Numbered from the stretch's first letter, positions 12,930-50,710 are shown. The stretch: 64,000 nt of DNA from Candidatus Omnitrophota bacterium (GCA_043826565.1 JBDRPX010000038.1:6334-70333); one strand, 5' to 3'. Program-made: numbers and translations. Notes: generated by a model from the sequence alone, not told the origin.

Positions 12930-14213
12930 ATGTATAAGATTTCCGTGCTTGATAGTGGTGTGAAAATTGTAACTTATACTGATTCCAGGGTTAGTTCTGA
13001 GGCCGTAGGCGTTTGGATCGGCGCTGGGGGGCGATATGAAAGCACTCCGGAAAATGGGGTTTCTCATTTTCTTGAGCATTTGGTTTTTAAGGGCACGAAA
13101 AATCGCACTTATCGCCAAATTAAAGAGTCAATTGAAGGTTTTGGGGGTATTCTTAACGGATTTACTTCTGATGAGTTAACTTGTTTTCTCGCTAAAGTCC
13201 TTTCCGGACAAGTTGCGACCGCAGTTGATGTTCTCATGGATTTGACATTTAATTCGCTGATTAAAACCAGCGATATCCAGAAGGAAAGATTGGTTGTCTA
13301 TGAAGAAATAAAAATGTATTCTGATTTACCCCGGCATCTTGCTTATGACGGTTTAATGCAATTGCTTTGGCCAGACCACCCCTTAGGAAGAAATATTGCC
13401 GGTACCGTGGAAACTCTGAAGGAAATGACCAGAAAAGATATCCTTAACTATAAAGAAACACATTATAGTCCTAAAAATATTTTGATTGCTGCCTGCGGTA
13501 ATGTTGCCCACGATGTTATTGTGAAGAATGCTGAGAAATTTATCACGAAAAATCGCCTGAATAAAGCATGTTGCGAAAAACCTGTTTATCAGCTATCTCA
13601 AGCTTTTAAAAATGAGTCGAAAACTTCGTTTATTATTAAAAATATTGAGCAAACGCATTGTTGTTTAGGAGTTCGTGCTCCGGATCGAAAGTCATCTTTA
13701 CGTCATGCGCTGACTCTGTTGAATATTATTTTAGGAGCAAATATGTCTAGCCGCCTTTTTAATGAAGTACGTGAAAGAAAGGGACTTGCTTATGATATCG
13801 GTACCGGGATTAAGCGTTTAAGTGATGATGGTGCATTCATTGTCCATGCTGGTGTAGTTAATGAAAAAGTAAAAGAAACCCTGACGGTAATTTTTAAAGA
13901 GCTAAAGAAGATTGTCCGGACTTTGGCGGATAAAGATGAGTTCACGAGAGCTAAATTGTATTATATCGGTCAGCTTACCATGGGAATTGAGGATACTTCT
14001 GAGCATATGTCTTATATCGGGGAGACACTATTGTGTGAAGGGAATGTTAAGAAAATAAAAGAGGTCATTAAAGAAATTGAGAAAGTTAAAGTTGAAGACA
14101 TAAGAAAAGTTGCGGAAATGATATTTAAGAGGGAGAACTTAACGCTGTCAATAGTGGGGCCTTTGCAAAAAGGACAAGATGAGCAGCTTAAGCAATTAAT
14201 GCAAACGTTTTAA
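12930..14213 (+). CDS. M16 family zinc peptidase (insulinase-like)
   Basis: Inverted zinc motif HxxEH in 'HFLEHLVFKGT'. M16 N- and C-domain architecture. Start chosen at the ATG with an AAGGAT RBS; the track ORF began at 12906. Confidence 0.85.
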   Translation: MYKISVLDSGVKIVTYTDSRVSSEAVGVWIGAGGRYESTPENGVSHFLEHLVFKGTKNRTYRQIKESIEGFGGILNGFTSDELTCFLAKVLSGQVATAVDVLMDLTFNSLIKTSDIQKERLVVYEEIKMYSDLPRHLAYDGLMQLLWPDHPLGRNIAGTVETLKEMTRKDILNYKETHYSPKNILIAACGNVAHDVIVKNAEKFITKNRLNKACCEKPVYQLSQAFKNESKTSFIIKNIEQTHCCLGVRAPDRKSSLRHALTLLNIILGANMSSRLFNEVRERKGLAYDIGTGIKRLSDDGAFIVHAGVVNEKVKETLTVIFKELKKIVRTLADKDEFTRAKLYYIGQLTMGIEDTSEHMSYIGETLLCEGNVKKIKEVIKEIEKVKVEDIRKVAEMIFKRENLTLSIVGPLQKGQDEQLKQLMQTF

Positions 14214-14239
14214 TAATCATTAAAAAGGGAGTGCCGCGT

Positions 14240-14908
14240 ATGAAGAAGAAAAAAAATAAAGAATCTCTGTTGATATCTCCATCGATTCTTTCCGCGGATT
14301 TCTGCCGACTGGAAAAAGATATTTCTTCGGTAGAAAAAGCCGGGGCAGATATGCTTCATGTTGATGTTATGGATGGAAATTTTGTGCCGAATATTACGAT
14401 TGGTCCGGTTGTTGTAAAGGCTATACGTAAACGCACAAAATTACCGTTAGATGTGCATTTAATGATCAAAGACCCGCTTTTTTTTCTTGATGATTTTATC
14501 AAAGCAGGAAGTTCGATAATCACGGTGCATATTGAAACATGTCCATTTACTCAGATAAAAAAAATTAAGAAAAAACTCCAAGCCGCCGGAGTTAAACTTG
14601 GAGTGTCTTTAAATCCTTCAACGTCAATAGGTAAAATTAAAAAGGTTTTAAAATTGGCGGATTTGATTTTGATTATGAGTGTGAATCCCGGTTTCGCGGG
14701 GCAGTCTTTTATGCATGAAGTTCTCCCGAAGATTACCCAATTGCGGGCGATATATGACGGTGATATTGAAGTCGATGGTGGTATTACTGATAAAACTGCG
14801 CCGCTTGTCGTTGAGCGGGGAGCAAATATTCTGGTTGCCGGATCCTATGTTTTTGGGGCGAAAGATAGAAAACTTGCGATAGGAAAATTAAAAAATGCAG
14901 GAAATTAA
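14240..14908 (+). CDS. rpe: Ribulose-phosphate 3-epimerase
   Basis: 'SPSILSADF...HVDVMDGNFVPNITIGP...DVHLM' are classic Rpe motifs. ATG at 14240 after an AAAAAGGGA RBS. Confidence 0.9.
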   Translation: MKKKKNKESLLISPSILSADFCRLEKDISSVEKAGADMLHVDVMDGNFVPNITIGPVVVKAIRKRTKLPLDVHLMIKDPLFFLDDFIKAGSSIITVHIETCPFTQIKKIKKKLQAAGVKLGVSLNPSTSIGKIKKVLKLADLILIMSVNPGFAGQSFMHEVLPKITQLRAIYDGDIEVDGGITDKTAPLVVERGANILVAGSYVFGAKDRKLAIGKLKNAGN

Positions 14909-16280
14909 ATTCGGGACTGACGGTTTTCGCGGAATTATCGCGGATAATTTTACTTTTAATAATGTGCGGCGAATCGGCCGGGCAATGGCAAAATACATAA
15001 AAAAATTAAAATTGTCCCCTTTGCGAAGAAAAATCATTGTTGGATATGACCGCCGCTTTTTATCCGATAAATTTGCGGATGCGATAGCTAAGGAAATCAG
15101 CAGTGAGGGGGTATCTGTATTGCTTAGCGATACTCCGGTGCCTACTCCGGCAGTCAGTTTTTATATTAGGGCGCAAAAATTGCCTGGCGGAATAATAATA
15201 ACCGCCAGCCATAATCCGGCCCATTTTAACGGAGTTAAAATTAAAAATGAATTTGGTGCTTCTGCGGAAAACCGTGTAACTACAGCAATAGAAAACTGGG
15301 TTAATACAGAGAAAACTGGACGTTTAAATAAAGTTGACGCGAAAAAGGTTAAAAGCGTAAAAATCATTGCTCCATACATAAAGAATTTGTGTAATTATTT
15401 AAATTTTTCTTTGTTAAAAAAATGTCGATTTAAGATTTTGGTGGATGTTATGCATGGTTCCGGAAGCGGGGTTATTGAGCAAATATTAAAAGGCACAGAC
15501 TGCGAAGTTACCACGATACATCAGGAGAATAATCCGCTTTTTTCCGGAGTAAACCCGGAACCGATTGAAATCAATCTGCAGGAATTATCCGGACAAATGA
15601 AAAAAAATAAATATGATTTGGGTATCGCCTTAGATGGGGATGCTGACCGGATTGGGGCAATGTGTCCGGGGGGTGGATTTATTAGTTCTCATTATGCTAT
15701 TTGTCTACTCTTGTTGCATTTTATTGAAAATAAGAGATGGACCGGCCGGGTTCTTAAAAGTTTAAATACTACCACGATGGTTGAAAAAATTACCAACCAT
15801 TTTGGATTGCCGCTGGAGGTGGTTCCAGTGGGTTTTAAATATATTGCTAAGGAGATGCTTAAAGGTGATGTTTTGCTCGGAGGAGAAGAATCCGGAGGTA
15901 TCGGCTTTAAGGGGTATATGCCGGAGAGAGACGGTATTCTTTCCGGATTACTTTTATTGGAAATGATGGCTTATCGCAAGCAGTCTATATTGGAAATTAT
16001 TAAAGATATGGAAAAGCGCTTTGGCTGTTTTTTTTATTTAAGAAAAGATTTGCACCTAAAACGTGTAATCTCTCAGAATAAAATTCGGCATCCAAAAAGT
16101 ATTTTAGGCCAAAAGGTAATTGATGTAAAAACTTATGATGGGACAAAATTTATTATGGAAGATGAGAGTTGGTTATTGATAAGGGCGTCCGGAACTGAGC
16201 CGATTGTGCGAATTTATGCAGAGTCAAAAAGTCCGAGCCGGACAAAAAAACTTATTACTTTTGGATGTGATCAGGTATGA
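14895..16280 (+). CDS. Phosphoglucomutase/phosphomannomutase family (alpha-D-phosphohexomutase)
   Basis: Active-site 'TASHNP', metal-binding 'DGDADR' and sugar-binding 'GGEESGG'. Confidence 0.9.
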
Positions 16281-22429: not shown

Positions 22430-22507
22430 CGGGGCGTGGCGCAGTTTGGCTAGCGCGCTTGAATGGGGTTCAAGAGGTCGGTGGTTCGAGTCCACTCGCC
22501 CCGACCA
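22430..22507 (+). tRNA. tRNA-Pro (anticodon GGG), CCA encoded
   Basis: Manual fold gives a cloverleaf: 7/7 acceptor stem CGGGGCG/CGCCCCG, D-stem GCGC/GCGC, anticodon stem CUUGA/UCAAG with loop AUGGGGU, T-arm GGUGG-UUCGAGU-CCACU, discriminator A and CCA. Confidence 0.8.
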
Positions 22508-22555: not shown

Positions 22556-22999
22556 GTGCTTTTGGACGACCAGATTCATTATCAAAATGATGATAACAGG
22601 ACCGGCGAAAGAAGGAATTTTGTACGCATAAATGCAAACTTCGTGGTGAGTTATTATAAATATCCGGGAGAAGTCAATCACACGGATATGAGTCTAACCC
22701 GTAATATTAGTCTGGGCGGGATATGTTTTACTACAGATAATGATTTTGAACTCGGCGCAATTTTACATATTACCTTAAGACTGCCTAAAGTTACGAAATT
22801 AATCGAGTTTTTGGGGGAAGTGGTATTTACTAAGCAGGAAAAAGGAAAGAATTCTATCTTTGATATCGGGGTAAAATTTGTGCAGGCACAAGAAGAAGAC
22901 CTCTATATTTTGCAAAACATCATAAAAGACTGTGCGGCTAGTGATAGTACTATTATTATAAACATTACCGAAAGAAGAAAAGAAGAGGACAATGAATAG
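22556..22999 (+). CDS. PilZ-domain protein (c-di-GMP receptor)
   Basis: RxxxR 'ERRNFVRI' and D/NxSxxG 'NISLGG' motifs in the typical PilZ spacing. GTG/TTG start, exact position uncertain. 8-nt overlap with hom. Confidence 0.7.
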   Translation: MLLDDQIHYQNDDNRTGERRNFVRINANFVVSYYKYPGEVNHTDMSLTRNISLGGICFTTDNDFELGAILHITLRLPKVTKLIEFLGEVVFTKQEKGKNSIFDIGVKFVQAQEEDLYILQNIIKDCAASDSTIIINITERRKEEDNE

Positions 23000-25410: not shown

Positions 25411-26621
25411 TGAAAAAAACTAAATATATTGTACTAGTTGCCGATGGTATGGCGGATTTACCTATAGAAGAGTTAGGCGGAAGGACACCTCTTGAGGTTG
25501 CTCGAACGCCGCATATGGATTACTTAGCTAAGCATGGAAAAATCGGAGAGGCTTTGTTTGTTCCTCAAGGAATGGTTCCGGGCAGCGATATAGCCAATTT
25601 GTCTATATTGGGCTATGATCCAAAAGAATATTATTGTGGTCGAGGACCATTAGAAGCAAGTAATTTAGGGGTTGAAATTCATGCTGGTGAGGTGGCTTTT
25701 CGCTGCAATCTTGTAACAATTGAAGATGATATTTTGGTCGATTATAGCGCGGGGCACATATCTACTAAAGAAGCCAGGATAATCATCGAGTTCCTAAATA
25801 AAGAGCTCTTTGATGATACGATACGTTTTCATGCGGGCATAAGTTACCGTCATTTGATGATCATAAAGGGAAACACTGAAGATTTGCTAAAGCTTACTTG
25901 CTTTGCGCCGCATGATATAATGGGTAAAAAAATTTCCAAATATTTACCGGATGGGCCAAGTTGTAATCGGATTATTGAAACTATGAACAGGTCCAAAGAA
26001 ATTTTAAATAAACATGAAGTAAATCAAGTTCGTATAGACTTAAAAGAAAATCCGGCTAATATGATTTGGCTCTGGGGTCAGGGTAAAAAGATTAAATTTC
26101 CTTCGTTTAAAGAAAAATATGGGGTAACTGGTTCGGTCATATCTGCCGTAGATCTTATTAAAGGAATGGGTAGATCCGTGGGGCTAAAGCCTATTTCGGT
26201 GCCGGGAGCTACGGGATATTATGATACAGATTATAAAGCTAAGGCGGACTATGCGTTGAAAAGTCTGGTAAATCATGATTTTGTTTTCGTCCATGTGGAG
26301 GCCCCGGATGAGGCCGGGCACAATGGGGATATGCGGGCAAAAATTACCGCGATTGAAAATTTTGACCGCCTAGTTGTCGGAACGATTATTGATTATTGTA
26401 AGAAAAATAAAGATGTCCGAGTATTAGTTCTGCCGGATCACCCTACACCAGTCGATTTAAAAACTCATACTTCTGACCCAGTCTGTTTTTTGATGTATGG
26501 AGAAGGGGTTCAAAAAGACAATTTTGATATTTATAATGAAGCTATTGCCCGAAAAAGCCAGCTAAAGATCACCGAGGGGCATACGCTAATGGATATTTTT
26601 ATTAAACAAGAAAATATATGA
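25410..26621 (+). CDS. Cofactor-independent phosphoglycerate mutase homolog (ApgM family); candidate non-orthologous homoserine kinase
   Basis: N-terminus 'YIVLVADGMADLPIEELGGRTPLEVARTPHMDYLA' is typical of the archaeal-type iPGM/ApgM metalloenzyme family. GTG start overlaps the thrC stop. Confidence 0.8.
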   Translation: MKKTKYIVLVADGMADLPIEELGGRTPLEVARTPHMDYLAKHGKIGEALFVPQGMVPGSDIANLSILGYDPKEYYCGRGPLEASNLGVEIHAGEVAFRCNLVTIEDDILVDYSAGHISTKEARIIIEFLNKELFDDTIRFHAGISYRHLMIIKGNTEDLLKLTCFAPHDIMGKKISKYLPDGPSCNRIIETMNRSKEILNKHEVNQVRIDLKENPANMIWLWGQGKKIKFPSFKEKYGVTGSVISAVDLIKGMGRSVGLKPISVPGATGYYDTDYKAKADYALKSLVNHDFVFVHVEAPDEAGHNGDMRAKITAIENFDRLVVGTIIDYCKKNKDVRVLVLPDHPTPVDLKTHTSDPVCFLMYGEGVQKDNFDIYNEAIARKSQLKITEGHTLMDIFIKQENI

Positions 26622-28240
26622 ATTCTGCAGTAATTCTTCTTATTACGCTAATCCTGTTTATCTTCGCATATAAATTCTTTGGTAAAAAATTAAAAGTACT
26701 TTTTGGTGTCGATCCTAATCGAAGGACACCGGCGTATAGTTCATTTGATGGAATCGACTATGTTCCTGCCCGGCATTGGACAATGCTTTTTGGACATCAT
26801 TTTGCCAGTATTGCTGGCGCCGGACCGATTATTGGTCCGGTTATCGCATGTGCCTTCTGGGGATGGGGGCCTTGTGTTATCTGGATAATAGTAGGTTCAA
26901 TTTTTTTCGGGGCTGTCCATGATTTTGGTGCTTTAATGATTTCGATAAGGCATAATGGCAGTACGATCGGTCAAATTTGCGAGCAAGTTGTTAGTAAGCC
27001 CGTTAGAATTATCATGGGCATTTTTCTCTGGATGACCTTGATACTTGTAATCGGAGTATTTGTTTTTTTTAGTGCTAATTCCTTTATTGCCGAGCCAAAG
27101 ATAATTTTGCCGAGTATCGGAATGATTCCGGTAGCTGTGCTGATTGGCTTCCTTTTATATCGTCGAAAATTAAATCAGCTGGGAGTGACTGTTTTTGGTC
27201 TAATACTTTTGGTCGGATTAATTTTTTTAGGGGCGATTATTCCTATTGAATTAACGCAAAATGCATTTCTAATCTGGTGTATCAGTTTATTGGTGTATGC
27301 TTTTTTTGCTTCAATAGTTCCCGTACAAGTGCTGCTGCAGCCACGGGATTATTTAACCAGTTTTCTATTATACTTCGGGATTGGGTGTGCAATTTTGAGT
27401 ATTTTTATTTCCCATCCGGTAACGGCAACAAAACCTTTTGTTTCTTTTTCTCCACCGGAAGGCAACTTATTCCCGATGCTGTTTGTAACAGTTGCCTGCG
27501 GGGCTGTTTCCGGATTCCACGCGCTGGTGGCCAGTGGAACTACTTCTAAACAAATTCCAACGGAAAAATTTGCTTTTAGAATCAGCTATGGAGGAATGTT
27601 ATTGGAAGGGGTATTAGCGATTATCGCGGTTATTGCGGTCAGTGCTGGGTTTTCTAATCATAGTGAATTGCTGGCGATGATGAAAGATCCTTCGGGTGGT
27701 CCGGTAATTGTTTTTGGAAAGGGGTTTGATGCAGTGACTAAGGTTGTTTTCTGTGGTTATGGCGGGTTATTGGCAATGACATTATTAAATGCTTTTATCC
27801 TGACAACTTTGGATACAGCAACAAGAATTGCCCGGTATTTAACAGAAGAATTATTTTATATAAAGAATAGATATGTATCAACTTTGATTGTAGTTTTTCT
27901 GGGGGGAATTTTAGCTGTGACTGGGGTGTGGAAACATATTTGGCCGGTTTTTGGTGCCGCTAATCAGCTGATTGCTGCACTAGCTTTAATGGTTTTAACG
28001 CTTTGGCTGGTAAAATCCGGAAAAAGTGCCAGGTTCACTTTTTTCCCGGGAGTTATTATGTTTATTTTAGCAATTATTGCGCTTATGAACCAATTTAGAG
28101 ACAATTTAGTGCAAAAAAACTGGATGCTTTTGCTAATTTGCGGTTTTTTAGCGGTGTTGGGAGTGTTTATTTTTATAAAATGCGGAATAATTTTTTCAAG
28201 TATTCGTAATAGCCTAAAAACAAAAAGGTTAGAGCTATAA
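26618..28240 (+). CDS. cstA: Carbon starvation protein A (CstA family peptide transporter)
   Basis: 'ASIAGAGPIIGPV' CstA hallmark and multiple TM helices. Confidence 0.85.
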   Translation: MNSAVILLITLILFIFAYKFFGKKLKVLFGVDPNRRTPAYSSFDGIDYVPARHWTMLFGHHFASIAGAGPIIGPVIACAFWGWGPCVIWIIVGSIFFGAVHDFGALMISIRHNGSTIGQICEQVVSKPVRIIMGIFLWMTLILVIGVFVFFSANSFIAEPKIILPSIGMIPVAVLIGFLLYRRKLNQLGVTVFGLILLVGLIFLGAIIPIELTQNAFLIWCISLLVYAFFASIVPVQVLLQPRDYLTSFLLYFGIGCAILSIFISHPVTATKPFVSFSPPEGNLFPMLFVTVACGAVSGFHALVASGTTSKQIPTEKFAFRISYGGMLLEGVLAIIAVIAVSAGFSNHSELLAMMKDPSGGPVIVFGKGFDAVTKVVFCGYGGLLAMTLLNAFILTTLDTATRIARYLTEELFYIKNRYVSTLIVVFLGGILAVTGVWKHIWPVFGAANQLIAALALMVLTLWLVKSGKSARFTFFPGVIMFILAIIALMNQFRDNLVQKNWMLLLICGFLAVLGVFIFIKCGIIFSSIRNSLKTKRLEL

Positions 28241-28268: not shown

Positions 28269-28297
28269 TTGACATATCGCTAGATGCATGATATACT
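28269..28297 (+). promoter_or_regulatory. Consensus sigma70 promoter (TTGACA-17-TATACT) driving the riboswitch leader
   Basis: TTGACA at 28269-28274, a 17-nt spacer and TATACT at 28292-28297. Confidence 0.55.
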
Positions 28298-28375
28298 TAT
28301 TACAGGATTTAAAAAACTTTTAATTAGTTTACAACTTTGTGAGGACTTTATCCGAAAATCCGTATTATTACGGAT

Positions 28376-28472
28376 TCGCCTATTATGGGCGGAGGCAAAC
28401 CTCGAGAAATCGGGGGACGCAAAGCCACGGGTCTGTTAGTAAAGCTATGATCGCCGGGCGCACCGACAACGT
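28376..28472 (+). ncRNA. c-di-GMP-I (GEMM) riboswitch aptamer
   Basis: 'GGCAAACC-UCGA-GAAA-UCGG-GGGACGCAAAGCCACGGGUC...CGCCGGGCGCACCGAC' matches the GEMM-I signature: P2 hairpin with GAAA tetraloop, invariant ACGCAAAGCC junction, P3 with tetraloop receptor, 3' 'GC.GGG...ACCG'. Compare V. cholerae Vc2 'GGGCAAACCAUUCGAAAGAGUGGGACGCAAAGCCUCCGGCC...AGCGGGGUUACCG'. Confidence 0.7.
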
Positions 28473-28489: not shown

Positions 28490-28529
28490 AGCCGAGCTGC
28501 CGAGATATACGCAGTTCGGCTTTATTTTT
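28490..28529 (+). terminator. Intrinsic terminator (riboswitch expression platform)
   Basis: 9-bp stem GCCGAGCUG/CAGUUCGGC (one G-U pair) with a 12-nt loop, followed by UUUAUUUUU. It lies ~20 nt after the aptamer and 156 nt before the giant ORF start. Confidence 0.65.
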
Positions 28530-28685
28530 AATAAATAAAATAGATATATGAAAGGGGGGTGATAAACAAAAAGCATGGTACAGTCAAAATTTAGCAGAGG
28601 AACATTTATACTATTATATATATATATTATACAAATATTTTTATAACAATTCATTTAAGTTTATAACATAAAAAGGGAGGATAGA

Positions 28686-31600
28686 ATGAAAACATATTAT
28701 CGCAATTATTCTGTTTTGGTAATCTGCTGTTTCCTCGCATACGTGTTCTTACCGAGCACTGCGATGGCTCAGTCTTTTGATGATTTCATGGAGAGCGGAT
28801 TAAGTCAGGAAGTTCTTCAGGGATTATTCAATTCCAGTGATCCTATCAGCGATCAAAGTGACGCGGCAAATCTTTCACAAACCGAAATCGCTCCACCTCC
28901 TATGGTTATTACTACTTCGGGCGGGGATATTTATTTGCTTCAGGGCGATGGCGTAAAAGCTAAATTAAAAATCGATCAACAAGGGACTCTGGAAACTACT
29001 TATTCACTTGACGGTTCTGATCTCAAAATGATTAATGAATTTGGTGAAGAATTCCATTATGAATATTCTCGTGATGGACAGACCGTGCAGATTCTTAATG
29101 CCAATGACGAGGTTATTGCCACACATTCTTTTGAATTAGGTAAAGTTACTGCTTTTTCAAGTCAAGGGAAAATCACTTATCAATATGCTAATGATGGCAG
29201 TGATCGCATGATTTCCTCTACTGATGAATGGGGCAATGTAACTAATTATGATGATTTGGGCCGTCCGGCTACAATAACTGATAGTAAAGGAGTTGTTGTT
29301 GGTCAGTATAAGTTTGATAACAAAGGAAAAATAGAAACATTCACAGATCATAATGGTAGTGTAACGGTATTTGATAGTGAAGGTTTGAGACCTCTTTATA
29401 CAAAGAATGCTCAGGGAACAAAAACTCAGGAATATCGTTATGATTCAACAGGGCATCTTACCGCGGTTTTGAATAATGTAAACGGTCAGATGACGGAAGT
29501 TGAAAACGGATACTATACTATAATTTATAATACAGTTGAAGCCACTACTCCTGACGGTACTGTGATAACTGATGATGAGGGAAATCCGATACTTGAATAT
29601 GTGGCCACCGGAGTATATAGTTATGATGCCGCTGGTAATGTTGAGGCAATTAATGATGTCGGGCCTGGTGGTATTATCACCGGTTGGACTGAATATGATG
29701 ATTATGGCAGAGTTTCGGCAACCTATAATGCCGAGGGAACAAAGATCCAGGAATATGCCTATAACCAGCATGGTTTTCTGGAGATGACAATTTCCTTAGG
29801 GTCTGTTGATGCTTTGACCGGGCAGCAGACAATGCAGAGTTATACGGTTTTTGATGGTCATGGCCGTCCTAGCGAAGTTTGGCAGATCGGCGATACCGCT
29901 AGTGATAAAGTTAAGATCCAGGAATATACTTATAAGGCAGATGGGTTACTTGATGTAACTTATTCCTTGGGGATAAAGAGAGATGATTTGGGTAATGCCA
30001 TCTTAGATGATGCCGGTGAGTATGTTTACATAACTACATCTAAAACTGTTTATGATACAAAAGGCCGTCCGAATGCTGTTTATGGAATGGTTCGTGACGA
30101 AAGCGGTGAAATTGTAAATGATGATATGGGTAATCCTATTTTGGAAGTTCAGCAGAAGTATACTTACGATAACAAAGGGTTCTTATCAAAAACAACATCG
30201 TATGGGTTTGGCGGAATAAAAACAGGGGAAACAGTGTTTGATGCATATAGCCGTCCGACAGAATCTTTTAACTCATCCGGAGCTTTAACTCAGACATATA
30301 CCTATGGTAATGATGGATTTCTTAAAGAGACATCTAATTATGGTGAAAATGGAGCATTTACCGGTTATACTCTTTATGACGCAAAAGGTAAGCCAACGGA
30401 TGTTTATAACCATGAAGGAAGTCTGACCCAAAAATATATCTATGACCAGAATGGTTTATTGTTAATGAGTTTAAGTTTATCTGCGGAAGCCGGTGGTAAT
30501 GATGCAGTAGTTGCCACTCTTTCTGATAAAATGACAATCGCACAATTATGGAATAGTGAATGGGATTCTCAATATGATTTCCTTGATCCGGACAATCAGT
30601 TAACATCAGAGCACTTAATTGCAGAAGCTTGGAGTGCCTTAGAAAGTGGAGATACGGAAAAGGCAAAAGCATTTTCTCTTAAATGTATTCAGACATTCTC
30701 CGCTGATGCAACATCTCAGCAAAAGCAAAATGATTCTTTACCGGCAGGGCCGGCTATTTTTGACAACTGGGCTTTAAATGATGTGGGAACCGGTTATTTT
30801 ATTCTTGGTCAAGCATTGGAAACAGAGGGTTCTAATGATGCCGCTGCCAGTGCTTATAAAATTCAGGCCGCTGAATTTGAATTCGCGCAATGTTGGGATC
30901 CGGCAGAAGGTAGTTTCTGGGTTGTTAGTGACGGCTCTAAAGTTCAGCTTAACGCGGATCACTTAAATGTAAACACATCAGTAGTAACCGGGTATACTCT
31001 TTTTGGCGGAGATTCCAAGCCGATCGCGTCATATCAGTTCTATGAAAAATTTGATGAAAATGGCGCAAGTCTTGGTGTCCAGGAAACCAAAGTGCAGGAG
31101 TATGTTTACACATATCAGGCAAACGTAAAAGTAATAGATCCGGTTTCCGGAGAAACTTCAACAGTCGCAGTTACTAAGAATTCCGGCTTTGTCCAGAAAA
31201 CGGTTAATTTTGGTGATATCATTGATCAGGCTACCGGAGAACAGGAAGTAACCGGATATACGACATTTGATAAGCTGGGCCGGCAGGACAGTACGTTTAA
31301 TTCAGATGACCAGCTTGTGCAAAGTTACAAATATTCCGGAGAAGGGTTTTTGAAATATACATATAGTTATGGTGCAAACAAGGCTAAAACCGGAACCACA
31401 TTGTTTGATCATTATTCACGGCCGGTAGCTAGTTTTAATATGGCCGGAACAGAAATTACTAAGATTCCGCAAGAACTTATTCGTGCTTTAGGCAGCGGAT
31501 TAACCGAAGCTGACTTAGCTAATCAGGATTGGCAGCCATATTTAAAAGGTCTAAATCAGACTTTTGAATATGACAGTAATGGATTTTTAAGTTCCAGTAA

Positions 31601-34600
31601 GTCTTATGGAGAAGGATTAGTCTTAAGTACCAGCCAAATATCCGGGCTTGTTGCGGCAATGGGATCATCTGTTGGAGATGCAGCGTACGATGTTACTTGT
31701 GATTATAATGAAGACGGCACGGTGAATTATGATGATATGGTTATTCTTAATGAGGCATTTGATGGCGCGGAAATGTTTGCGAATACATATGGCTCAAAAG
31801 CCGGCGATGGTAATTACTTCGCTCAATATGATTATGACAGCGATGGAGATGTAGATAAGAAGGATTTGTCATCATTTGGAAAGACTTTTGAGAAATCAAC
31901 AGAGTATCGGCCGACATGGACCGGTGTGACAAATTATGATAAATACGGTAAAGCAGATACTGTTATGAATGTTATCGAGGATGCTTCCGGAAATCAAGTT
32001 GAGGGAGTGCTGGTCCAGAAGTATGAGTATAATGAGCGCGGGTTTATGGAGAGATCAGTTTCTTATGGAATTCTTACTGATGATCAGGGTAATGTGATTA
32101 AAGATGGTGAGAATCCGATATCCATAGCCACAGGTTTTACACAGTTTGATGCTGGCTCACGGCCTGTAGCAACGTATAGCTTGTATGATGATGGGCTTAA
32201 TGGTTTGCAGGAATCTAAAATACAGGAATATGTATACGATAAAGGGTTCCTTACACAAACTGTTAACTTTGGTGATATCATTGATCAATCTACAGGTGAA
32301 TTGGCAAAGGCTGGTTATACTAATTTTGATAATTTTGGCCGGCAGACAACTAGTTATAACGAAGAAGGCCAAAAAACAACTGTATTTAAATATTCCATCC
32401 AGGGATTTATGTCCGAGACATACAACTATGGCAGCGGCGGAGCATATTTAGGAAAGACGGTGTTTAATAAAGCCGGCAGACCTACGGAAGCTTATAATAT
32501 GTATGCGAGCAAGAGCGGCACACAGAACGGTCTAACCCAGAAATTCAATTATAATGAGTATGGTTTTATGAGTCACAGTGAAAGCTTTGGACAGGATCAG
32601 ACTTTGACGAGTACAACTTACTATAATGGACATGGAAAAGGTTTAAGGGTAGAAAATGAAAAAGGGTTTGTAATTTCATCTTATCAGTATAATGAACGCG
32701 GATTCATGGAAAAGACTCAGAGTCTTGCGTTTATTGAAGTAACTGATCCGGCGGAAATTGCGAATCTGCAATCTCAGGGTCTTTATGTTCAGGAAACTGC
32801 AATTGATGATAATACCGGAGAAGCAGTAACCCAGGGAGGATTTTACGCGGTTACCGGGTATACGACATTTGATGCAAATTCGCGGCCAACCGAATCATAT
32901 CAGTGTTATTGGACTACTCAGGGCGAAGGTCAGGGGGTAAAGGTTCAAGAATATGTATATAAAGACGGATTCTTAGTAGAAACACTTAATTTTGGAAGGC
33001 CGGAAGGCGGAGAACAGCGAGTGGTGGGTACGACCTCGTTTGATAAATTCGGACGTCAGAGTGCTTCCTATAATGAACTAGGGCAGGTGACAACAAAGTA
33101 TCAATATTCAAACCAGGGTTTTTTAAGCGGCACAACGAATCATGGAGAAAAAGGTGTTAAGACGGGAAGTACGGAGATTAGTGCTTTAGGACGTCCAACC
33201 GCCGCTTATAACCATAAGGGTACTTTAGTTCAGGCATTTGGATATGACAGCGTTACCGGACAATTAACCGGAAGTACATCTTATGGGGAGCCGGATCCGG
33301 ATACAGGTGATCCGACTATGACTGGTACGACTACATATGATGCTTATGGTAAGGCGACAGGTGCTTATAATGATATGGGTGCTAAAGTTCAGGAATATGT
33401 TTACGATCCGCAGGGCTTTATGGTGGAAACTTTGAGCCTTGGAGATGATGACGGGAGTGGAAATCCAGTGATAACTGGTAGAACAGTTTATGATGATGCC
33501 AGTAAGCCGGTAGAATCCTACACAAGATCTAGTAGTGGTGTGGAGACCAGAGTTCAGGTGTTTGTATATAATACAGCAGTTGATTTAAGTAACTATGCTG
33601 ATTATGTAGCCAATCCTGATAATTATAGTGAGACAAAAACCGGATTCTTGAGTTCAACGTTTAGTCATGGTAAAGACAATTATCTGAGTGGATATACTAA
33701 GTTTAATCAGTATGGTCAACAGACAAACTCATATAATGAATTTAATGAGCTGACTGTGGCTTATAAATATTCTGGTTCCGGATTCATGAATGAATCATGG
33801 AGTTATGGGTTAAATAGTTTGCGTACTGGTAAAACGGTGTATTCATCTTCAGGCAGGCCGGAAGCTTCTTATAATGAAAAAGGCGCTGTAGTTCAGCAGT
33901 TTAACTATAATGCCAACGGTTTCATGGCATCAACAACGTCATTTGGCGATGTTGGAGACGATGGTAATCCTACACAGACACAGACTACCTATTATGATGG
34001 ATATGGAAAACAGACTCACAGTATGAATACCGAAGGTAGTATTGTTCAGACATTTCAATATGATGATGCCGGGTTTTTACTGAAATCTCAGGGCTGGGCG
34101 CAATATGAAGGTGTCCCGGACGGTCTAACATGGTATGAAGTTCTCGACCAGGGATATGCCGTAGAAACAAGTTATACAACATATGATAATGCTTCCAGAC
34201 CAGTTGAGTCTTATATAGTTTATCAGGGTGATTCCGGAAGAAGAGAAGTCAAGACTCAGAGTTTTATTTACAACACTGGAGTTGATTCGACTAATTACCA
34301 GGATTATTTAGCGAATCCGGATAGCTATAGCGGTACACAGACTGGTTTTATGACCCAATCTGTATCTTATACTCTAAATAACGATGAAAACGGAGCTCCG
34401 GTATCTCATGAAGCGAATGGCGGCCGGGTTGCCAATGCTGTAGGTACAGAAGTAGTTGTTTCCGGGCTGACAACATATAATAGTTTTGGGCGGCCGGATA
34501 AGACATATAATCATCTCGGGCAAGTTGTTTCGGTAAGTTCATACAATGCGAATGGGTTCTTAAAAGAAACGCAAAACTTCGGTGAGAATGGTGCATATAG

Positions 34601-35540
34601 CGGAAAACTAATTTATAATGCCGCGGGAAGACCAACCGAAGCTTATAATAACTTGCATACAAAGGTAACAGAGTATATATACAATGACCAGGGTGTTCTT
34701 TCCCAGACAGTCAGCTTTAACCAGGGACTGGTTACTCAATATACAACTTATGATATTTACTCCAAAGCTATTGAATCCAGACAGTGTTTTACCGCTGGAG
34801 AAACCACGCATAATTTCCCCAATAGTACAGGGTATCAATTTGGTGAAGGTCAGGCGAACTACAGCGTTGCCTATAATGATGATGGCAGCATATCTGAGGT
34901 TACCGGTGGTGCTTTAAGCCAGCAGAGTTTCTATAATGAGTTTGGCTTTATGAAGGCATCAGTCAGTTATGGGAGAACAGGGCAGGCGACAAGTTATGTT
35001 GTCTTTGATAAATACCAGAGGCCGACTGAGGTCTATAATATTACACCAGACGCAGGAGCTAACCGTGATGCGATAATGTCCAGTATTATCGTACAGTCTG
35101 AAGTTGTTTTAACTGGGGCTGCGGCTGAGGCTCATAATTCTGCTCGGGTACAGAAATATAATTACAATGAGAAGGGGTTCCTGGTATCAACGATTTCCTA
35201 TCAGCGTACAAAAGAATATGATGATCAAGGAAATCCGTTATCTGCAGAAACCTGGGAAAAAGAATCATCCATTACATATTACAACACTGTTGGACAGCAA
35301 ACATCTACGTATTTACTTAAGGATGATGGTACCGATGGTGCTAAACAGGCAACTTACACATACAATAACCAGGGATTCTTAACTCAGGCAGTCAATTACA
35401 ACGGCAATACGAGAACCGGTTATACAGAGTATGATGCCAGTGGTAGGCAGGTAATTAGTTATAATGCTAGTAATTCACCTGTTAATAAATACTGGTATGA
35501 TTTAAATGGGTTCTTAATCGGAAATACAAATGTTCAGTAA
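28686..35540 (+). CDS. Giant secreted YD-repeat (Rhs/teneurin-like) surface protein, 2284 aa, with an internal dockerin-like pair; no Rhs core or toxin domain
   Basis: AAAGGGAGG RBS and signal peptide 'MKTYYRNYSVLVICCFLAYVFLPSTAMAQ'. Dozens of YD repeats (e.g. 'YRYDSTGHLTAV', 'YxYNxxGFL...GYTxFDxxGRP'). Dockerin-like 'DYNEDGTVNYDDMVIL' and 'DYDSDGDVDKKDL'. No PxxxxDPxGL core. Confidence 0.85.
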   Translation: MKTYYRNYSVLVICCFLAYVFLPSTAMAQSFDDFMESGLSQEVLQGLFNSSDPISDQSDAANLSQTEIAPPPMVITTSGGDIYLLQGDGVKAKLKIDQQGTLETTYSLDGSDLKMINEFGEEFHYEYSRDGQTVQILNANDEVIATHSFELGKVTAFSSQGKITYQYANDGSDRMISSTDEWGNVTNYDDLGRPATITDSKGVVVGQYKFDNKGKIETFTDHNGSVTVFDSEGLRPLYTKNAQGTKTQEYRYDSTGHLTAVLNNVNGQMTEVENGYYTIIYNTVEATTPDGTVITDDEGNPILEYVATGVYSYDAAGNVEAINDVGPGGIITGWTEYDDYGRVSATYNAEGTKIQEYAYNQHGFLEMTISLGSVDALTGQQTMQSYTVFDGHGRPSEVWQIGDTASDKVKIQEYTYKADGLLDVTYSLGIKRDDLGNAILDDAGEYVYITTSKTVYDTKGRPNAVYGMVRDESGEIVNDDMGNPILEVQQKYTYDNKGFLSKTTSYGFGGIKTGETVFDAYSRPTESFNSSGALTQTYTYGNDGFLKETSNYGENGAFTGYTLYDAKGKPTDVYNHEGSLTQKYIYDQNGLLLMSLSLSAEAGGNDAVVATLSDKMTIAQLWNSEWDSQYDFLDPDNQLTSEHLIAEAWSALESGDTEKAKAFSLKCIQTFSADATSQQKQNDSLPAGPAIFDNWALNDVGTGYFILGQALETEGSNDAAASAYKIQAAEFEFAQCWDPAEGSFWVVSDGSKVQLNADHLNVNTSVVTGYTLFGGDSKPIASYQFYEKFDENGASLGVQETKVQEYVYTYQANVKVIDPVSGETSTVAVTKNSGFVQKTVNFGDIIDQATGEQEVTGYTTFDKLGRQDSTFNSDDQLVQSYKYSGEGFLKYTYSYGANKAKTGTTLFDHYSRPVASFNMAGTEITKIPQELIRALGSGLTEADLANQDWQPYLKGLNQTFEYDSNGFLSSSKSYGEGLVLSTSQISGLVAAMGSSVGDAAYDVTCDYNEDGTVNYDDMVILNEAFDGAEMFANTYGSKAGDGNYFAQYDYDSDGDVDKKDLSSFGKTFEKSTEYRPTWTGVTNYDKYGKADTVMNVIEDASGNQVEGVLVQKYEYNERGFMERSVSYGILTDDQGNVIKDGENPISIATGFTQFDAGSRPVATYSLYDDGLNGLQESKIQEYVYDKGFLTQTVNFGDIIDQSTGELAKAGYTNFDNFGRQTTSYNEEGQKTTVFKYSIQGFMSETYNYGSGGAYLGKTVFNKAGRPTEAYNMYASKSGTQNGLTQKFNYNEYGFMSHSESFGQDQTLTSTTYYNGHGKGLRVENEKGFVISSYQYNERGFMEKTQSLAFIEVTDPAEIANLQSQGLYVQETAIDDNTGEAVTQGGFYAVTGYTTFDANSRPTESYQCYWTTQGEGQGVKVQEYVYKDGFLVETLNFGRPEGGEQRVVGTTSFDKFGRQSASYNELGQVTTKYQYSNQGFLSGTTNHGEKGVKTGSTEISALGRPTAAYNHKGTLVQAFGYDSVTGQLTGSTSYGEPDPDTGDPTMTGTTTYDAYGKATGAYNDMGAKVQEYVYDPQGFMVETLSLGDDDGSGNPVITGRTVYDDASKPVESYTRSSSGVETRVQVFVYNTAVDLSNYADYVANPDNYSETKTGFLSSTFSHGKDNYLSGYTKFNQYGQQTNSYNEFNELTVAYKYSGSGFMNESWSYGLNSLRTGKTVYSSSGRPEASYNEKGAVVQQFNYNANGFMASTTSFGDVGDDGNPTQTQTTYYDGYGKQTHSMNTEGSIVQTFQYDDAGFLLKSQGWAQYEGVPDGLTWYEVLDQGYAVETSYTTYDNASRPVESYIVYQGDSGRREVKTQSFIYNTGVDSTNYQDYLANPDSYSGTQTGFMTQSVSYTLNNDENGAPVSHEANGGRVANAVGTEVVVSGLTTYNSFGRPDKTYNHLGQVVSVSSYNANGFLKETQNFGENGAYSGKLIYNAAGRPTEAYNNLHTKVTEYIYNDQGVLSQTVSFNQGLVTQYTTYDIYSKAIESRQCFTAGETTHNFPNSTGYQFGEGQANYSVAYNDDGSISEVTGGALSQQSFYNEFGFMKASVSYGRTGQATSYVVFDKYQRPTEVYNITPDAGANRDAIMSSIIVQSEVVLTGAAAEAHNSARVQKYNYNEKGFLVSTISYQRTKEYDDQGNPLSAETWEKESSITYYNTVGQQTSTYLLKDDGTDGAKQATYTYNNQGFLTQAVNYNGNTRTGYTEYDASGRQVISYNASNSPVNKYWYDLNGFLIGNTNVQ

Positions 35541-35578
35541 TTAGTTTTAGGTTGTTGGTTTTAGAATCAAGTGTTTTA

Positions 35579-35619
35579 AGCAACAGCTTCCTGCGAAAGT
35601 GGGAAGCTGTTGCTTTTTA
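35579..35619 (+). terminator. Rho-independent terminator after the giant gene
   Basis: 12-bp perfect stem GCAACAGCTTCC/GGAAGCTGTTGC, a 10-nt loop, then TTTTT. Confidence 0.75.
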
Positions 35620-35675
35620 ACATGTTACATTAATTAAACAACAGCTTAAAATCCCCTAATTATCTTAATTTTTCC

Positions 35676-47744: not shown

Positions 47745-48836
47745 TTATTTTCTTGCGGATTCCTCGATAAGCCAAATACCGGTAAAAAGAAATATTGTAT
47801 TAGTCATCCATGCGGAAATAAACGGCGGCAAGATCCCGATTTTACCAAAAGACATACATACGGCATGTACCGTCCAGTAGCTAAAACTTATGGCGATACT
47901 GATCGTTATTCCCAGGATAGTGCTGGTATTTCTTTTTTGTGTCAGGGTAAACGGAACCACAAAAAATATAATTATAAAGTTAGCCAAAGGAAAAGATACT
48001 TTACTATAAAATTCAACTAATTCCTTCCGGGCTTTAAACCCGTTGTTTTCCAGACGGCGGATGTATTTCTTAAGCTGCCAATAACTCATCAGGTTAGGTT
48101 GTATATTAGCTCGCTTAAAATCTTTTGGTTGTTCATCAATTAATATTACTTTTTCCACATAGTGCTCAGGGCTGCCGACCAATTCACCTTTAGAATATTC
48201 GCTGATAATACAATCATAGAATAGCCAATATCCTTCAACCCACTGAGCGCGTTTGGCGACAACCTGCCGGGATACTTCATTTTTACTATTATTTTCCGAA
48301 ATTATTATGTTATTCATTTGATAGCGTTTTGCGTCATAACTATTAATGATAAAAATCCTATTGTGCGACCCATATAAAGTTAAGTCTTTCATTATGTTGT
48401 TTTTTTCTTTTTTTGCATTAGTTTTAAAATATGATTCTTTAAGATTTTCCGCGTGCAAATATGAATCCGGCTTGATAAGCTCATTTATGCTAAAGCTTAC
48501 CGAGCTTATAAATAAACCGAAAATAATAAAAATCCCGATAATGCTCCAGAGATTAACTCCAATCGCCTTAATGGCCATGATCTCATTATTTTTATTTAAC
48601 GTGCTTAGGGTATAAATAGTTGCCAGGATCATAATAACCGGGCTGATCTGAACGAAAATATAAGGGGTCAGCGAGAAATAATAATCGCAAAGTACAAACA
48701 ACGGTACTTTTGCTTTGGCGATCTCATCGAGATGTTCAAAGAGGTCAATAATCCAGGATAAAGAAATAAATAAAATTAAACACCAGACATACGGTTTTAA
48801 AAACTCACCAAGAATATATTTTTTCAGTATTTTCAT
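47745..48836 (-). CDS. lptG: LPS export permease LptG (YjgP/YjgQ family)
   Basis: 363 aa, 6-TM YjgP/YjgQ architecture with a periplasmic beta-jellyroll insertion. Immediately downstream of its paralog. Confidence 0.75.
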   Translation of the reverse strand: MKILKKYILGEFLKPYVWCLILFISLSWIIDLFEHLDEIAKAKVPLFVLCDYYFSLTPYIFVQISPVIMILATIYTLSTLNKNNEIMAIKAIGVNLWSIIGIFIIFGLFISSVSFSINELIKPDSYLHAENLKESYFKTNAKKEKNNIMKDLTLYGSHNRIFIINSYDAKRYQMNNIIISENNSKNEVSRQVVAKRAQWVEGYWLFYDCIISEYSKGELVGSPEHYVEKVILIDEQPKDFKRANIQPNLMSYWQLKKYIRRLENNGFKARKELVEFYSKVSFPLANFIIIFFVVPFTLTQKRNTSTILGITISIAISFSYWTVHAVCMSFGKIGILPPFISAWMTNTIFLFTGIWLIEESARK

Positions 48837-48838
48837 AA

Positions 48839-49933
48839 TTAATCTTCTATTACCTTAAAGGTTAAAATAACTCCACTGATAAACATTACTGTATTTGGCA
48901 GCCAAACGCCGATTATCGGGTCAATTTTACCGCGCAATGCAAAACTTTCTCCAAAAGCCATTAGCAAATAGTATAGTAGACAAATAATGAGGCTTAAGCC
49001 AAAACCCAGCGAACGTTCGCGCCGTTTAACGCGGATTGCCAGGGGCATGCCGATTAAAATGAAGACAAGACTGCTGAAGGAAAGTGAAAATTTTCGATAA
49101 AGTCCTACAAGTAGCGGTGTTTCATCAATATCTAATTTTTGCATAGCTTTAATTTCTTCCTTGACCTCATTTATGCTCATGTCGGAAACTTTTTTCCCGA
49201 GTTGAGTTGAAGTCTGAACTTCATTAAGGTAAAGAGATAAATGGTATGTTTTAAAATTTAATTTATAAAAAATGTCTGGATCCTCAAAGCTGGGCTCATC
49301 AGCAGTTCCATTTTTAAGCTCAAGTTTTAAAGAACCTTTTTCCGGGATGGGGATAAATGAGCCTGATTTTGCCACAATAGTTCTCGTGGGTTTGTTCTCC
49401 TGAGGCTGATAAATCCGGATATCTTGAAAACTATCATTGGTAATTTTGAATATAAAAATAATTTGATTTTTAAATGCTTTAATGAAAGTTTTTTCCTCAA
49501 GATATGCGGTTGGTTTTTTTATCCCGATTTCATTAACAATTGATCGCATTGTATAATGGGATTTCGGGATAATGGTATCGTTAAAATAAAGACAAAGCAA
49601 ACTAAACATTAACCCAATAAGAAATAAATCTATAGCAAGTGTATAAAGACTGATTCCGCTGGATCTTAAAGCAGTAATTTCATTATCCGATGACAGCCGG
49701 CCAAAGGTTAAAAGTGTGGCGGTGAGTATTGAAATAGGAATAGAAAATATAAGCAAAGAAGGCAATAGTGATAAAAACAATTTCAAGACAGTGCCAGGCG
49801 TAACTCCTTTAGCTATAACTAGTTCTGCAAGTTTAACCAGATTTCCTATAACCAAAACAAAACTTATAATTATAACTGAAAGCAGTAAAAGGGAAAACCA
49901 TTCTTTAAGTATATAATTTTTTAGTATTTTCAT
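48839..49933 (-). CDS. lptF: LPS export permease LptF (YjgP/YjgQ family)
   Basis: Paralog of the adjacent gene. Start chosen at 'MKILKNYILKEW' (49933), the canonical YjgP N-terminus, rather than track 50008. Confidence 0.75.
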   Translation of the reverse strand: MKILKNYILKEWFSLLLLSVIIISFVLVIGNLVKLAELVIAKGVTPGTVLKLFLSLLPSLLIFSIPISILTATLLTFGRLSSDNEITALRSSGISLYTLAIDLFLIGLMFSLLCLYFNDTIIPKSHYTMRSIVNEIGIKKPTAYLEEKTFIKAFKNQIIFIFKITNDSFQDIRIYQPQENKPTRTIVAKSGSFIPIPEKGSLKLELKNGTADEPSFEDPDIFYKLNFKTYHLSLYLNEVQTSTQLGKKVSDMSINEVKEEIKAMQKLDIDETPLLVGLYRKFSLSFSSLVFILIGMPLAIRVKRRERSLGFGLSLIICLLYYLLMAFGESFALRGKIDPIIGVWLPNTVMFISGVILTFKVIED

Positions 49934-49938
49934 TTGCT

Positions 49939-50622
49939 TTATCTCTGCCGGGCAAAAGTAAAAGTTGTTATTTTTTCTGCTCCGGCAATTTTTAAAATGC
50001 GGGAGCATTCATTTAGAGTAGCTCCGGTTGTAAATATATCATCAACTAGAAGTATTTTTTTATTTTTAAATAAATGATCTTTTGTGCACTTAAATGCATT
50101 GCCGACATTAGCCAGCCGTTCTTTTCTGGATAAATCAAACTGCGATCCAGTTTTTTTAATTCTAAGTAAGCTGCCGCATGAACAAGGGATATTAAAACGC
50201 CGGCCTATCGTGTTGGCCAAAATCTGCGCTTGGTTAAAGCCGCGTGTAGAAAATTTCGCTCTATGCAAAGGTACAGCAACTATAACATCCAGATCATTTG
50301 TATTTATATGCTTATCTAAAAATGAAGCCATTAATTCAGCCAATGCTTTTGCTAACCGTGTTTTTCTTCGATATTTAATCAAGTGTAAGCATTTGCGGGC
50401 TATCCCGCTATATGCAAATACACTTAAAGTTTTTTCAAAAAAGAACTGCTTGTTTTTTCTGGAAATACAAACAGGCAGCCCGGTTTTTTCTAGCCTAGCC
50501 AAGCAGTCTTTGCAAATATCCTGATCCTGAGGGCTGATTTTAATTTTACAAATCGGGCAAAATGCCGGAAAAATTATGTTTAGTAAATAATTAAGATAAG
50601 AATTTATTTTTAATAACCACAT
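49939..50622 (-). CDS. comF: ComF family protein (phosphoribosyltransferase domain with N-terminal Cys4 zinc finger)
   Basis: N-terminal 'CPICKIKISPQDQDICKDCL' and C-terminal PRTase motif 'ILLVDDIFTTGATL'. Confidence 0.8.
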   Translation of the reverse strand: MWLLKINSYLNYLLNIIFPAFCPICKIKISPQDQDICKDCLARLEKTGLPVCISRKNKQFFFEKTLSVFAYSGIARKCLHLIKYRRKTRLAKALAELMASFLDKHINTNDLDVIVAVPLHRAKFSTRGFNQAQILANTIGRRFNIPCSCGSLLRIKKTGSQFDLSRKERLANVGNAFKCTKDHLFKNKKILLVDDIFTTGATLNECSRILKIAGAEKITTFTFARQR

Positions 50623-50710
50623 AGTTTAATAATGTTAACTAAGTCTTTAATATAACACAAATAAGAACATTTTTCAAATAGGCAATCTGAATTTGCCGGG
50701 ATAGGAAGAA

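Follow-up and report, generated by a model that had tools for sequence, protein, structure and literature searches.

To our knowledge, shells made of YD/Rhs repeats are known almost only as toxin containers, the well-studied exception being the animal teneurins, which are adhesion receptors. In animal teneurins the YD scaffold serves cell-cell adhesion and not intoxication (PMC5851990), and the bacterial teneurin-like proteins (TLPs) still enclose a toxin (PMC13018210). On the regulatory side, Bacillus thuringiensis uses the ON riboswitch Bc2, which belongs to class I of the cyclic di-GMP riboswitches (c-di-GMP-I), to regulate its large collagen adhesion protein Cap (PMC4933901), and CbpA constitutes a second riboswitch-adhesin case in this species (PMC7423583). 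In the Omnitrophota, for which a host-attached lifestyle has been proposed (PMC10066038), giant proteins of the Archaeovorin and Dockerin types correspond to open reading frames (ORFs) of >20 kb or at least 30,000 amino acids (aa), with HEAT, TSP3, SecA-like and enzyme domains, transmembrane anchors, and poor conservation (bioRxiv 10.1101/2023.11.21.568195; PMC10066038). Here we describe a YD-repeat protein of 2,284 aa encoded in a 64,000-nucleotide stretch of DNA from Candidatus Omnitrophota bacterium (GCA_043826565.1 JBDRPX010000038.1:6334-70333; hereafter the window, numbered from its first letter). This protein is a member of the YD/RHS-repeat superfamily that fails each defining test of Rhs core/polymorphic toxins and of teneurin-like proteins, and its gene lies behind a c-di-GMP riboswitch. 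We know of no earlier YD-repeat protein under riboswitch control.

The gene is a complete coding sequence with an ATG start and no in-frame stop before its end (28686..35540, stop included), and it lies on the + strand, as do all the elements of its leader and terminator described below. The 2,284-aa ORF with a signal peptide given by the first-pass annotation of the window was exact, and the same protein from an Omnitrophota metagenome-assembled genome (MAG) has been deposited, without any difference, under the name 'hypothetical protein ABII88_11185 [Candidatus Omnitrophota bacterium]'. The ~250-kDa product starts with a Sec-type signal peptide (aa 1-28, 28686..28769; MKTYYRNYSVLVICCFLAYVFLPSTAMA followed by QS), which, judged from its layout, combines a basic n-region and a hydrophobic core with an AxA site cleaved between AMA and QS. 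This layout is kept in orthologues, with cleavage after ANA, AFA, or ALA and before Q, F, or L, respectively, and export beyond the inner membrane is predicted. A lipoprotein signal is unlikely since the two N-terminal cysteines of the window protein vary among orthologues, in which no lipobox is conserved. A Shine-Dalgarno sequence, AAGGGAGGA, precedes the large ORF at 28673..28681.

The bulk of the protein consists of YD repeats. Both repeat motifs quoted at first reading are present; Pfam RHS_repeat (PF05593) reaches 61.6 bits over three stretches (gathering score, 22), the best being aa 170-203, and TIGR01643 scores 16.7 bits against a threshold of 15.8. A hidden Markov model (HMM) built iteratively from the window protein's own repeats only defined a unit of 45-46 aa, corresponding to two YD hairpins or four strands (TGxTxFDxxGRPxxxYNxxGxxxQxYxYNxxGFLxxTxxYGxxG), with ~33 confident copies between aa 183 and 2283. 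These double-YD units are grouped into roughly seven super-repeats of ~230 aa, as segments of 200-260 aa match each other in self-BLAST at 31-43% identity with offsets of 221-241 aa and multiples thereof. By inspection, the same unit order recurs in the super-repeats, namely, an SRP type with a long inserted hairpin, GRQ, GRP, and GK. Both periods differ from the 33/66-aa alternation proposed initially, which has to be abandoned. The unit HMM matched canonical Rhs proteins, with 7 to 20 domains each and a best full-sequence E value of 4.5e-19, and gave no match to the 87 other long ORFs in the window. Hence, the units are true, though diverged, YD repeats.

Along the protein, canonical-looking YD repeats come first (aa 96-330, 28971..29675) and form the part matching Rhs proteins by sequence, the family profile reaching RhsA (7q97, E 1.5e-6) and Tse5. 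They are followed by five double-YD units at aa 331-605 (29676..30500), supported by the unit HMM (independent E values of 1e-15 to 1e-21) and by hairpins in the AlphaFold2 (AF2) model with a predicted local distance difference test score (pLDDT) of ~80-90. According to the unit HMM and self-comparison, the super-repeat region begins with the double-YD units of aa 768-980 (30987..31625); from aa 1079 to 2283 (31920..35534), the same two approaches together with AF2 delineate ~22 further double-YD units arranged in ~230-aa super-repeats up to the C terminus. The last unit finishes at residue 2283, one residue before the stop, and orthologues share the end motif, so the remark that the ORF ends inside a repeat does not hold in the sense of a truncation. 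The units have diverged strongly: a profile of the C-terminal half found no match among PDB sequences, and against 1.84 billion representative proteins, it gave only 33 matches, 14 of them at E <= 1e-30, without reaching any canonical Rhs protein among these representatives. The matches at E <= 1e-30 include known family members and new proteins, full-length or fragment-sized.

The Rhs/YD polymorphic toxins (RhsA 7q97, Tse5 8cp6, and TcB-TcC) have homologous YD hairpins and are the best structural matches of the window protein. Unlike these toxins, the window protein has no PxxxxDPxGL core, and a regular-expression search found neither this motif nor the shorter DPxGL anywhere in it. The RHS core model NF041261 reaches 38 bits against a cut-off of 2000, through a local match to the repeats only (aa 101-260). 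Pfam detects only RHS_repeat above threshold in the protein, with no toxin, core (including its autoproteolysis domain), plug, DUF6531, PAAR, NHL, Tox-GHH, FN-plug, or ABD domain, and the same holds for the C-terminal 513 aa, which alone match RHS_repeat at 22.5 bits and contain no other Pfam domain. Delivery partners are missing as well, as no type VI secretion system, Tc, PAAR, VgrG, TcA/TcB, or immunity-like gene was found within ~6 kb in the window and in nine orthologous loci. The absence of an Rhs core and toxin claimed by the first-pass annotation is thus borne out. Conversely, the window protein carries features that set it apart from Rhs toxins, i.e., the Sec signal peptide, the 230-aa super-repeat, tetratricopeptide repeat (TPR) and dockerin-like inserts, and riboswitch control. 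The YD scaffold is also common to the teneurins and the bacterial TLP (9ifo; PMC13018210; PMC5851990), whose structures are among the Foldseek matches; in contrast to teneurins, the window protein lacks the FN-plug, the NHL propeller, the ABD, and the Tox-GHH as detected by Pfam, and in contrast to bacterial TLPs, no toxin is seen in its family.

Two inserts interrupt the repeats, a helical TPR-like segment and a dockerin-like pair having been suspected at first reading. The first, at aa 612-755 (30519..30950), is a helical TPR domain of approximately three repeats with the helix-turn-helix arrangement of the TPR fold; compared alone with PDB sequences, it gave nothing significant. The second is a dockerin-like pair of calcium-binding loops at aa 1006-1062 (31701..31871; DYNEDGTVNYDD ... 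DYDSDGDVDKKD). The proposed check with Pfam Dockerin_1 (PF00404) ended just under the gathering score of 22.9 bits, with 17.0 bits for the whole protein and 21.8 bits for the segment, whereas a family profile matched solved dockerins with E values of 4e-4 to 5e-3. Moreover, at least 90% of the sequences keep the loop residues D1006, N1008, G1011, and D1017, and NCBI names one orthologue (P0008) 'dockerin type I domain-containing protein'.

The AF2 model of the C-terminal half (aa 1090-2284, built from 9 sequences) consists nearly entirely of hairpins, with a pLDDT of 81.7 and a predicted TM-score of 0.75. With the model of the N-terminal half (8 sequences), Foldseek placed Rhs effectors, teneurins, the bacterial TLP, SGS1, and TcB/TcC on top with E values down to 2.7e-27, the TM-scores of these top matches being only ~0.15. 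The hairpin models and this ranking of Rhs, teneurin, and Tc proteins argue for a local architecture of YD sheet. The overall fold may be a closed shell or an open spiral, and a closed Rhs-like cocoon goes beyond the models. All the high-ranked solved matches are encapsulating shells (Rhs, TcB/TcC, teneurin, and SGS1), and ~2,000 aa of YD repeats approximate a TcB-TcC cocoon in size. Both points would suit a cargo container of the Rhs/Tc/teneurin type, in which a closed YD shell surrounds a toxin or another protein supplied in trans or the protein's own TPR/dockerin-like insert; we regard such a container as very unlikely. Each ~230-aa super-repeat, with its ~20 strands, might instead form one turn of a longer regular spiral. 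Extending this idea, one could imagine a cargo-free open beta-spiral or tube of about seven turns, devoid of plug, core, and toxin, acting as a c-di-GMP-induced contact or attachment device of host-dependent Omnitrophota that docks through its TPR and dockerin-like modules. Taken as a whole, this remains a tentative and rather unlikely conjecture. If true, it would mean that bacteria put the Rhs shell to adhesive or architectural use independently of, and in parallel with, the animal teneurins.

The protein belongs to a family with at least 10 full-length orthologues of 2160-2294 aa and 42-68% identity, found by database search and alignment, and a most distant relative (P0012) of 2,981 aa and 33% identity, giving a family size range of 2.2-3.0 kaa. 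The relatives with a source name come from Omnitrophota or 'PVC group' MAGs. Orthologues align end to end with the window protein, and the consensus continues through the shared C-terminal motif. A repetitive gene taken from a MAG and devoid of a C-terminal core could, a priori, be an assembly artefact or the decaying pseudogene of an Rhs toxin, collapse of the repeats having been named from the start as what would invalidate the ORF. Yet intact ORFs of near-equal length with the same C-terminal motif occur in at least nine independent assemblies, and the exhaustive profile search met the same architecture again. Within the ORF, DNA-level internal repeats reach no more than 75% identity, over stretches of up to 115 nt, and no tandem array was found, which makes assembly collapse implausible; together with the conserved orthologue length, this rules it out. 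An artefact is further excluded because the full-length orthologues share the gene neighborhood in at least nine other MAGs. As for decay, the repeat units are better conserved between orthologues (50-60% identity) than the inserts (~36-37%). We consider either origin extremely improbable. Judged by these alignments, the gene is vertically inherited, constrained, and lineage specific in an Omnitrophota clade. Altogether, this small lineage-restricted family unusually combines a YD scaffold devoid of toxin and built of regular super-repeats with TPR and dockerin-like inserts and a conserved c-di-GMP riboswitch. A bacterial family that retained ~2,000 residues of YD scaffold without the core and toxin would mean that bacteria themselves employ this scaffold for non-toxic purposes, all the more so if it acquired TPR and dockerin-like modules and c-di-GMP control.

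Two proteins depart from the common architecture. P0012, encoded at 6001-14946 of locus L010, has a C-terminal part of 2,040 aa compared to 1,195 aa in the window protein, the number of repeats being expanded. P0066, of 1,089 aa, combines an N-terminal TIR domain (PF13676, 40.5 bits) with a C-terminal region weakly similar (E 1e-6) to the last repeat units of the toxin-less YD family.

The family shares its phylum with the Omnitrophota giant proteins, which are proposed to act in host or prey attachment and some of which have dockerin-type calcium-binding modules. It differs from them by its size, its YD repeats, its good conservation, and its synteny, and papers on Omnitrophota giant proteins make no mention of Rhs, YD repeats, or riboswitches (bioRxiv 10.1101/2023.11.21.568195; PMC10066038). 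The suggestion that the window protein exemplifies the giant-protein hallmark of the phylum is therefore a loose one, the giants being far larger and of other architectures.

Upstream of the gene, the order of regulatory elements points to a riboswitch-gated transcription unit. A sigma-70-type promoter (28269..28297) is apparent from its sequence, TTGACA-17 nt-TATACT with TG before the -10 element and 11/12 matches, and several orthologous leaders, among them L004, L001, and L010, have a comparable TTGACA...TATACT pair upstream. In the window, the promoter is followed by a conserved 5' leader element, ATCCGAAAA, and then by a small hairpin (TCCGT-loop-ACGGA; 28350..28376), as is visible in orthologous leaders. 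Next comes a c-di-GMP-I riboswitch aptamer (RF01051, 28384..28504), whose distal P3 loop is enlarged by a 37-nt insertion; the match covers the full-length model and scores 64.1 bits (E 3e-10), the gathering score being 35. In 8/8 orthologous loci with upstream DNA, the gene is immediately preceded by a homologous aptamer, at 36.7-67.9 bits and each above its own family's gathering score. The expression platform is an intrinsic terminator (28490..28529), whose 5' arm, AGCCGAGCTGC (28490-28500), doubles as the 3' strand of aptamer P3 and whose 3' arm, GCAGTTCGGCT (28511-28521), precedes a T-tract. This layout is found in every leader, with the aptamer 3' strand AGCCGAGCTGCC, 6-10 nt, its complement, and a T-tract; in L007, the strand and its complement are separated by a 47-nt insertion. 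In 5/6 leaders folded, the minimum-free-energy structure is the terminator conformer; in the sixth (L001), this conformer comes within 2 kcal/mol of the minimum. Leaving the terminator 3' arm unpaired makes the best fold of each leader 7-16 kcal/mol less stable than with the terminator formed. As the terminator 5' arm is the aptamer 3' strand and the terminator is more stable without ligand, the architecture corresponds to an ON switch, a polarity that we infer from architecture and thermodynamics. Downstream of the gene, an intrinsic terminator (35578..35620) has a 17-bp stem, a GAAA loop, and a T-run (-34.4 kcal/mol, z-score -5.3). The own promoter, riboswitch, and strong own terminator, all of which had been announced by the first-pass annotation, argue for a monocistronic unit gated by c-di-GMP.

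This arrangement resembles that of Bc2-Cap and CbpA, with a class I c-di-GMP aptamer and a terminator-based ON platform, predicted in our case, in the 5' untranslated region of the gene for a very large secreted protein. Unlike Cap and CbpA, the window protein is made of YD repeats, lacks an LPXTG anchor and collagen-binding domains, and comes from a host that is probably diderm; moreover, its aptamer contains a conserved internal element of 23 nt that the Rfam consensus does not have.

Several leaders show variations. In the closest locus (L001 5690-5811, 68% protein identity), the best model is c-di-GMP-I-GGC (RF03167, 67.9 bits) and not RF01051. In L002 (5645-5828) and L010 (5751-5904), an extra insertion of ~60-70 nt separates the P2 hairpin from the P3 5' strand, and because of it these leaders score only 42 and 37 bits, respectively, with Rfam. 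L001, L002, and L010 are without the extra 5' hairpin, and the ATCCGAAAA motif there abuts the aptamer directly. In the window, the 28350-28376 hairpin gives a spurious sub-threshold match to CRISPR-DR11 (20 bits against 45). Past the riboswitch terminator, an SD-like purine run, GAAAGGGGGG (28550-28559), precedes a short upstream ORF of 23 codons running from an ATG at 28575 to a stop at 28646 (28550..28646 for both). The SD-like run is found 10-25 nt past the terminator in all nine leaders, whereas the AT-rich peptide is not conserved; a conserved leader peptide is ruled out, since the short post-terminator ORFs vary in sequence and length and only the SD-like run is kept. In L004 and L010, the start of the short ORF is in frame with the large ORF, resulting in annotated N-terminal extensions of 77 and 24 aa, respectively, before the signal peptide.

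The 23-nt element just mentioned, GATCGCCGGGCGCACCGACAACG (GATCGCCGGGCGCACCGAYAACG), is near-invariant in the leader alignment and lies inside the P3 insertion (28449..28471). Its consensus, GAUCGCCGGGCGYAYCGAYAACG, also occurs in leaders L001, L002, L004, L006-L010, L013, L018, L020, L058, L082, L092, L109, and L117. A degenerate pattern scan of GTDB genomes returned at least 120 matches, mostly due to chance in high-GC genomes, of which a filter on a second motif kept 12. All of these are riboswitch leaders carrying the element, 4 upstream of orthologues and 8 upstream of other genes (L013, L109, L018, L020, L058, L082, L092, and L117). The latter genes include several encoding signal-peptide proteins of 170-1500 aa, one encoding a GspE/PilB-like ATPase, and one encoding a MotA/ExbB-like protein. 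The outer strand and terminator are also present in 8/8 of these other leaders, with compensatory changes in the terminator arms (e.g., GCUGC/GCAGU versus GUUGU/GCAAC). Being shared by eight leaders of other genes, the element appears as a recurrent sub-domain of a riboswitch subtype and the ON-type platform as general to it; the element itself may provide an alternative partner for pairing or an additional tertiary domain. The subtype occurs in Omnitrophota and neighboring lineages, and the genes behind it suggest that envelope and secretion functions form a regulon under c-di-GMP riboswitch control. The locus of the GspE/PilB-like ATPase is labelled Firestonebacteria, and L020 and the orthologue P0012 come from the same MAG.

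High c-di-GMP generally promotes sessile and adhesive states. We propose, with moderate confidence, that the window protein is a c-di-GMP-induced, Sec-exported, toxin-less YD scaffold for attachment or cell contact. Transcription would begin at the gene's own promoter and run into the c-di-GMP-I riboswitch. Without ligand, the more stable terminator would form and transcription would stop, whereas upon c-di-GMP binding, the shared strand would be kept in the aptamer and the polymerase would read through. Since the riboswitch reads as an ON switch, the protein would be made at high c-di-GMP, which corresponds to the sessile or attached state in most bacteria, and it would then serve as an attachment and contact scaffold at the surface or in the envelope, with the TPR and dockerin-like modules tethering it to partner proteins. 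A role in attachment is suggested by the existence of riboswitch-adhesin pairs alongside the preference of c-di-GMP for such states (PMC4933901, PMC7423583), by the teneurins as an example of a YD scaffold put to adhesive use (PMC5851990), by the secreted or pilus/secretion-related proteins encoded by other genes of the riboswitch subtype, and by the host-attached lifestyle proposed for Omnitrophota (PMC10066038). The first-pass annotation had offered a c-di-GMP-regulated adhesin; the c-di-GMP link stands, the riboswitch being present at every orthologous locus with upstream DNA, and the adhesin function is a putative one, drawn from analogy and context. Such a system would provide an entry point to attached-state switching in uncultured, probably host-dependent Omnitrophota, comprising an RNA sensor, its output gene, and the wider gene set behind the riboswitch subtype.

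A c-di-GMP ON switch would equally suit production of a biofilm matrix, and the missing anchor is compatible with release. YD/Rhs repeats have, moreover, historically been proposed to bind carbohydrate. The protein could then be a secreted matrix or polysaccharide-binding protein that holds glycans through its YD surface and is no cell-cell adhesin. We find this quite unlikely; Pfam detects no carbohydrate-binding module, and the idea overlaps with the attachment scaffold that we favor.

Two sets of observations weigh against this attachment scaffold. First, no membrane anchor, sorting signal, lipobox, outer-membrane secretion partner, or ligand was identified, and as neither an anchor nor an outer-membrane route was found, surface display in a probable diderm would be no more than putative. 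Second, the internal element at 28449-28471 resembles the aptamer 3' strand and alone gives a 47.6-bit aptamer alignment, so that a more complex or opposite riboswitch logic is possible. The corresponding OFF-switch model, in which this element would be the true aptamer 3' strand and the outer strand an anti-terminator, is unlikely. Indeed, the 47.6 bits were obtained with RF03167, under that family's threshold of 59, and the internal element and outer strand recur together in the eight leaders of other genes. Furthermore, the outer strand could not serve as an anti-terminator because, without ligand, the terminator already exceeds the closed aptamer in stability by 7-16 kcal/mol.

The genomic setting was compared in nine orthologous loci recovered with flanks, with neighbor genes examined within ~6 kb on either side. 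In the seven loci with DNA on both sides, the order tRNA-PilZ-hom-thrC-iPGM-(CstA)-[gene]-kdsA-kdsD-kdsC-lptB is kept. The upstream neighbors are thus a tRNA, a PilZ gene, and genes for homoserine dehydrogenase, a threonine-synthase-like PALP enzyme, and iPGM, with or without CstA, and downstream, kdsA, which in the window directly follows the YD-repeat gene, kdsD, kdsC, and lptB are followed by hpf and the genes for PTS-EIIA (PTS, phosphotransferase system), CofD, HPr, and PtsI. Among the two remaining loci, L005 is without upstream DNA and L010 has the usual upstream genes and a different downstream set. In all loci, the neighbors belong mainly to central metabolism, lipopolysaccharide (LPS) synthesis, and the PTS. 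With kdsA-C and lptB adjoining, the host is probably diderm.

This neighborhood bears on another possibility, namely, that the protein is kept between the membranes after Sec export as a periplasmic or envelope structural scaffold or coat, with the TPR insert contacting envelope proteins. The Sec signal peptide without a recognizable outer-membrane route or anchor would fit such a location, and the gene adjoins the LPS genes kdsA, kdsD, kdsC, and lptB in 8/9 orthologous loci. In a structural search with the TPR insert, the periplasmic TPR domain of YbgF/CpoB was the best match, LpoP, BamD, and YfgM being also listed; however, designed consensus TPRs score nearly as high as YbgF/CpoB, so these matches are generic. 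Likewise, the neighborhood looks more like conserved synteny of housekeeping genes than like an operon, the gene having its own promoter, riboswitch, and terminator, and dockerin-like modules are typical of extracellular proteins. We therefore hold an envelope scaffold to be unlikely, though worth keeping in mind.

Some features of the locus lie outside the YD-repeat gene and its leader. The window tRNA (22430-22504) is followed by a stand-alone PilZ-domain gene (22556-22999), a member of a c-di-GMP receptor family, ~6 kb upstream of the riboswitch-gated gene. This tRNA and PilZ pair is kept in the orthologous loci extending far enough upstream, the tRNA itself being detected in six. CstA, of the carbon starvation/pyruvate transporter family, lies between iPGM and the riboswitch in the window (26618-28240) and likewise in L004 and L010, and it is absent from this interval in L001, L002, and L006-L009. 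In L010, where upstream synteny and the riboswitch are retained, the downstream genes encode aspartate kinase, LeuA, and ValRS. The window as a whole has ~38% G+C and a positive GC skew of about +0.2, nearly all of its genes being co-oriented on the + strand; the exception is a group of four minus-strand ORFs at 47745-51939, where the skew is close to zero.

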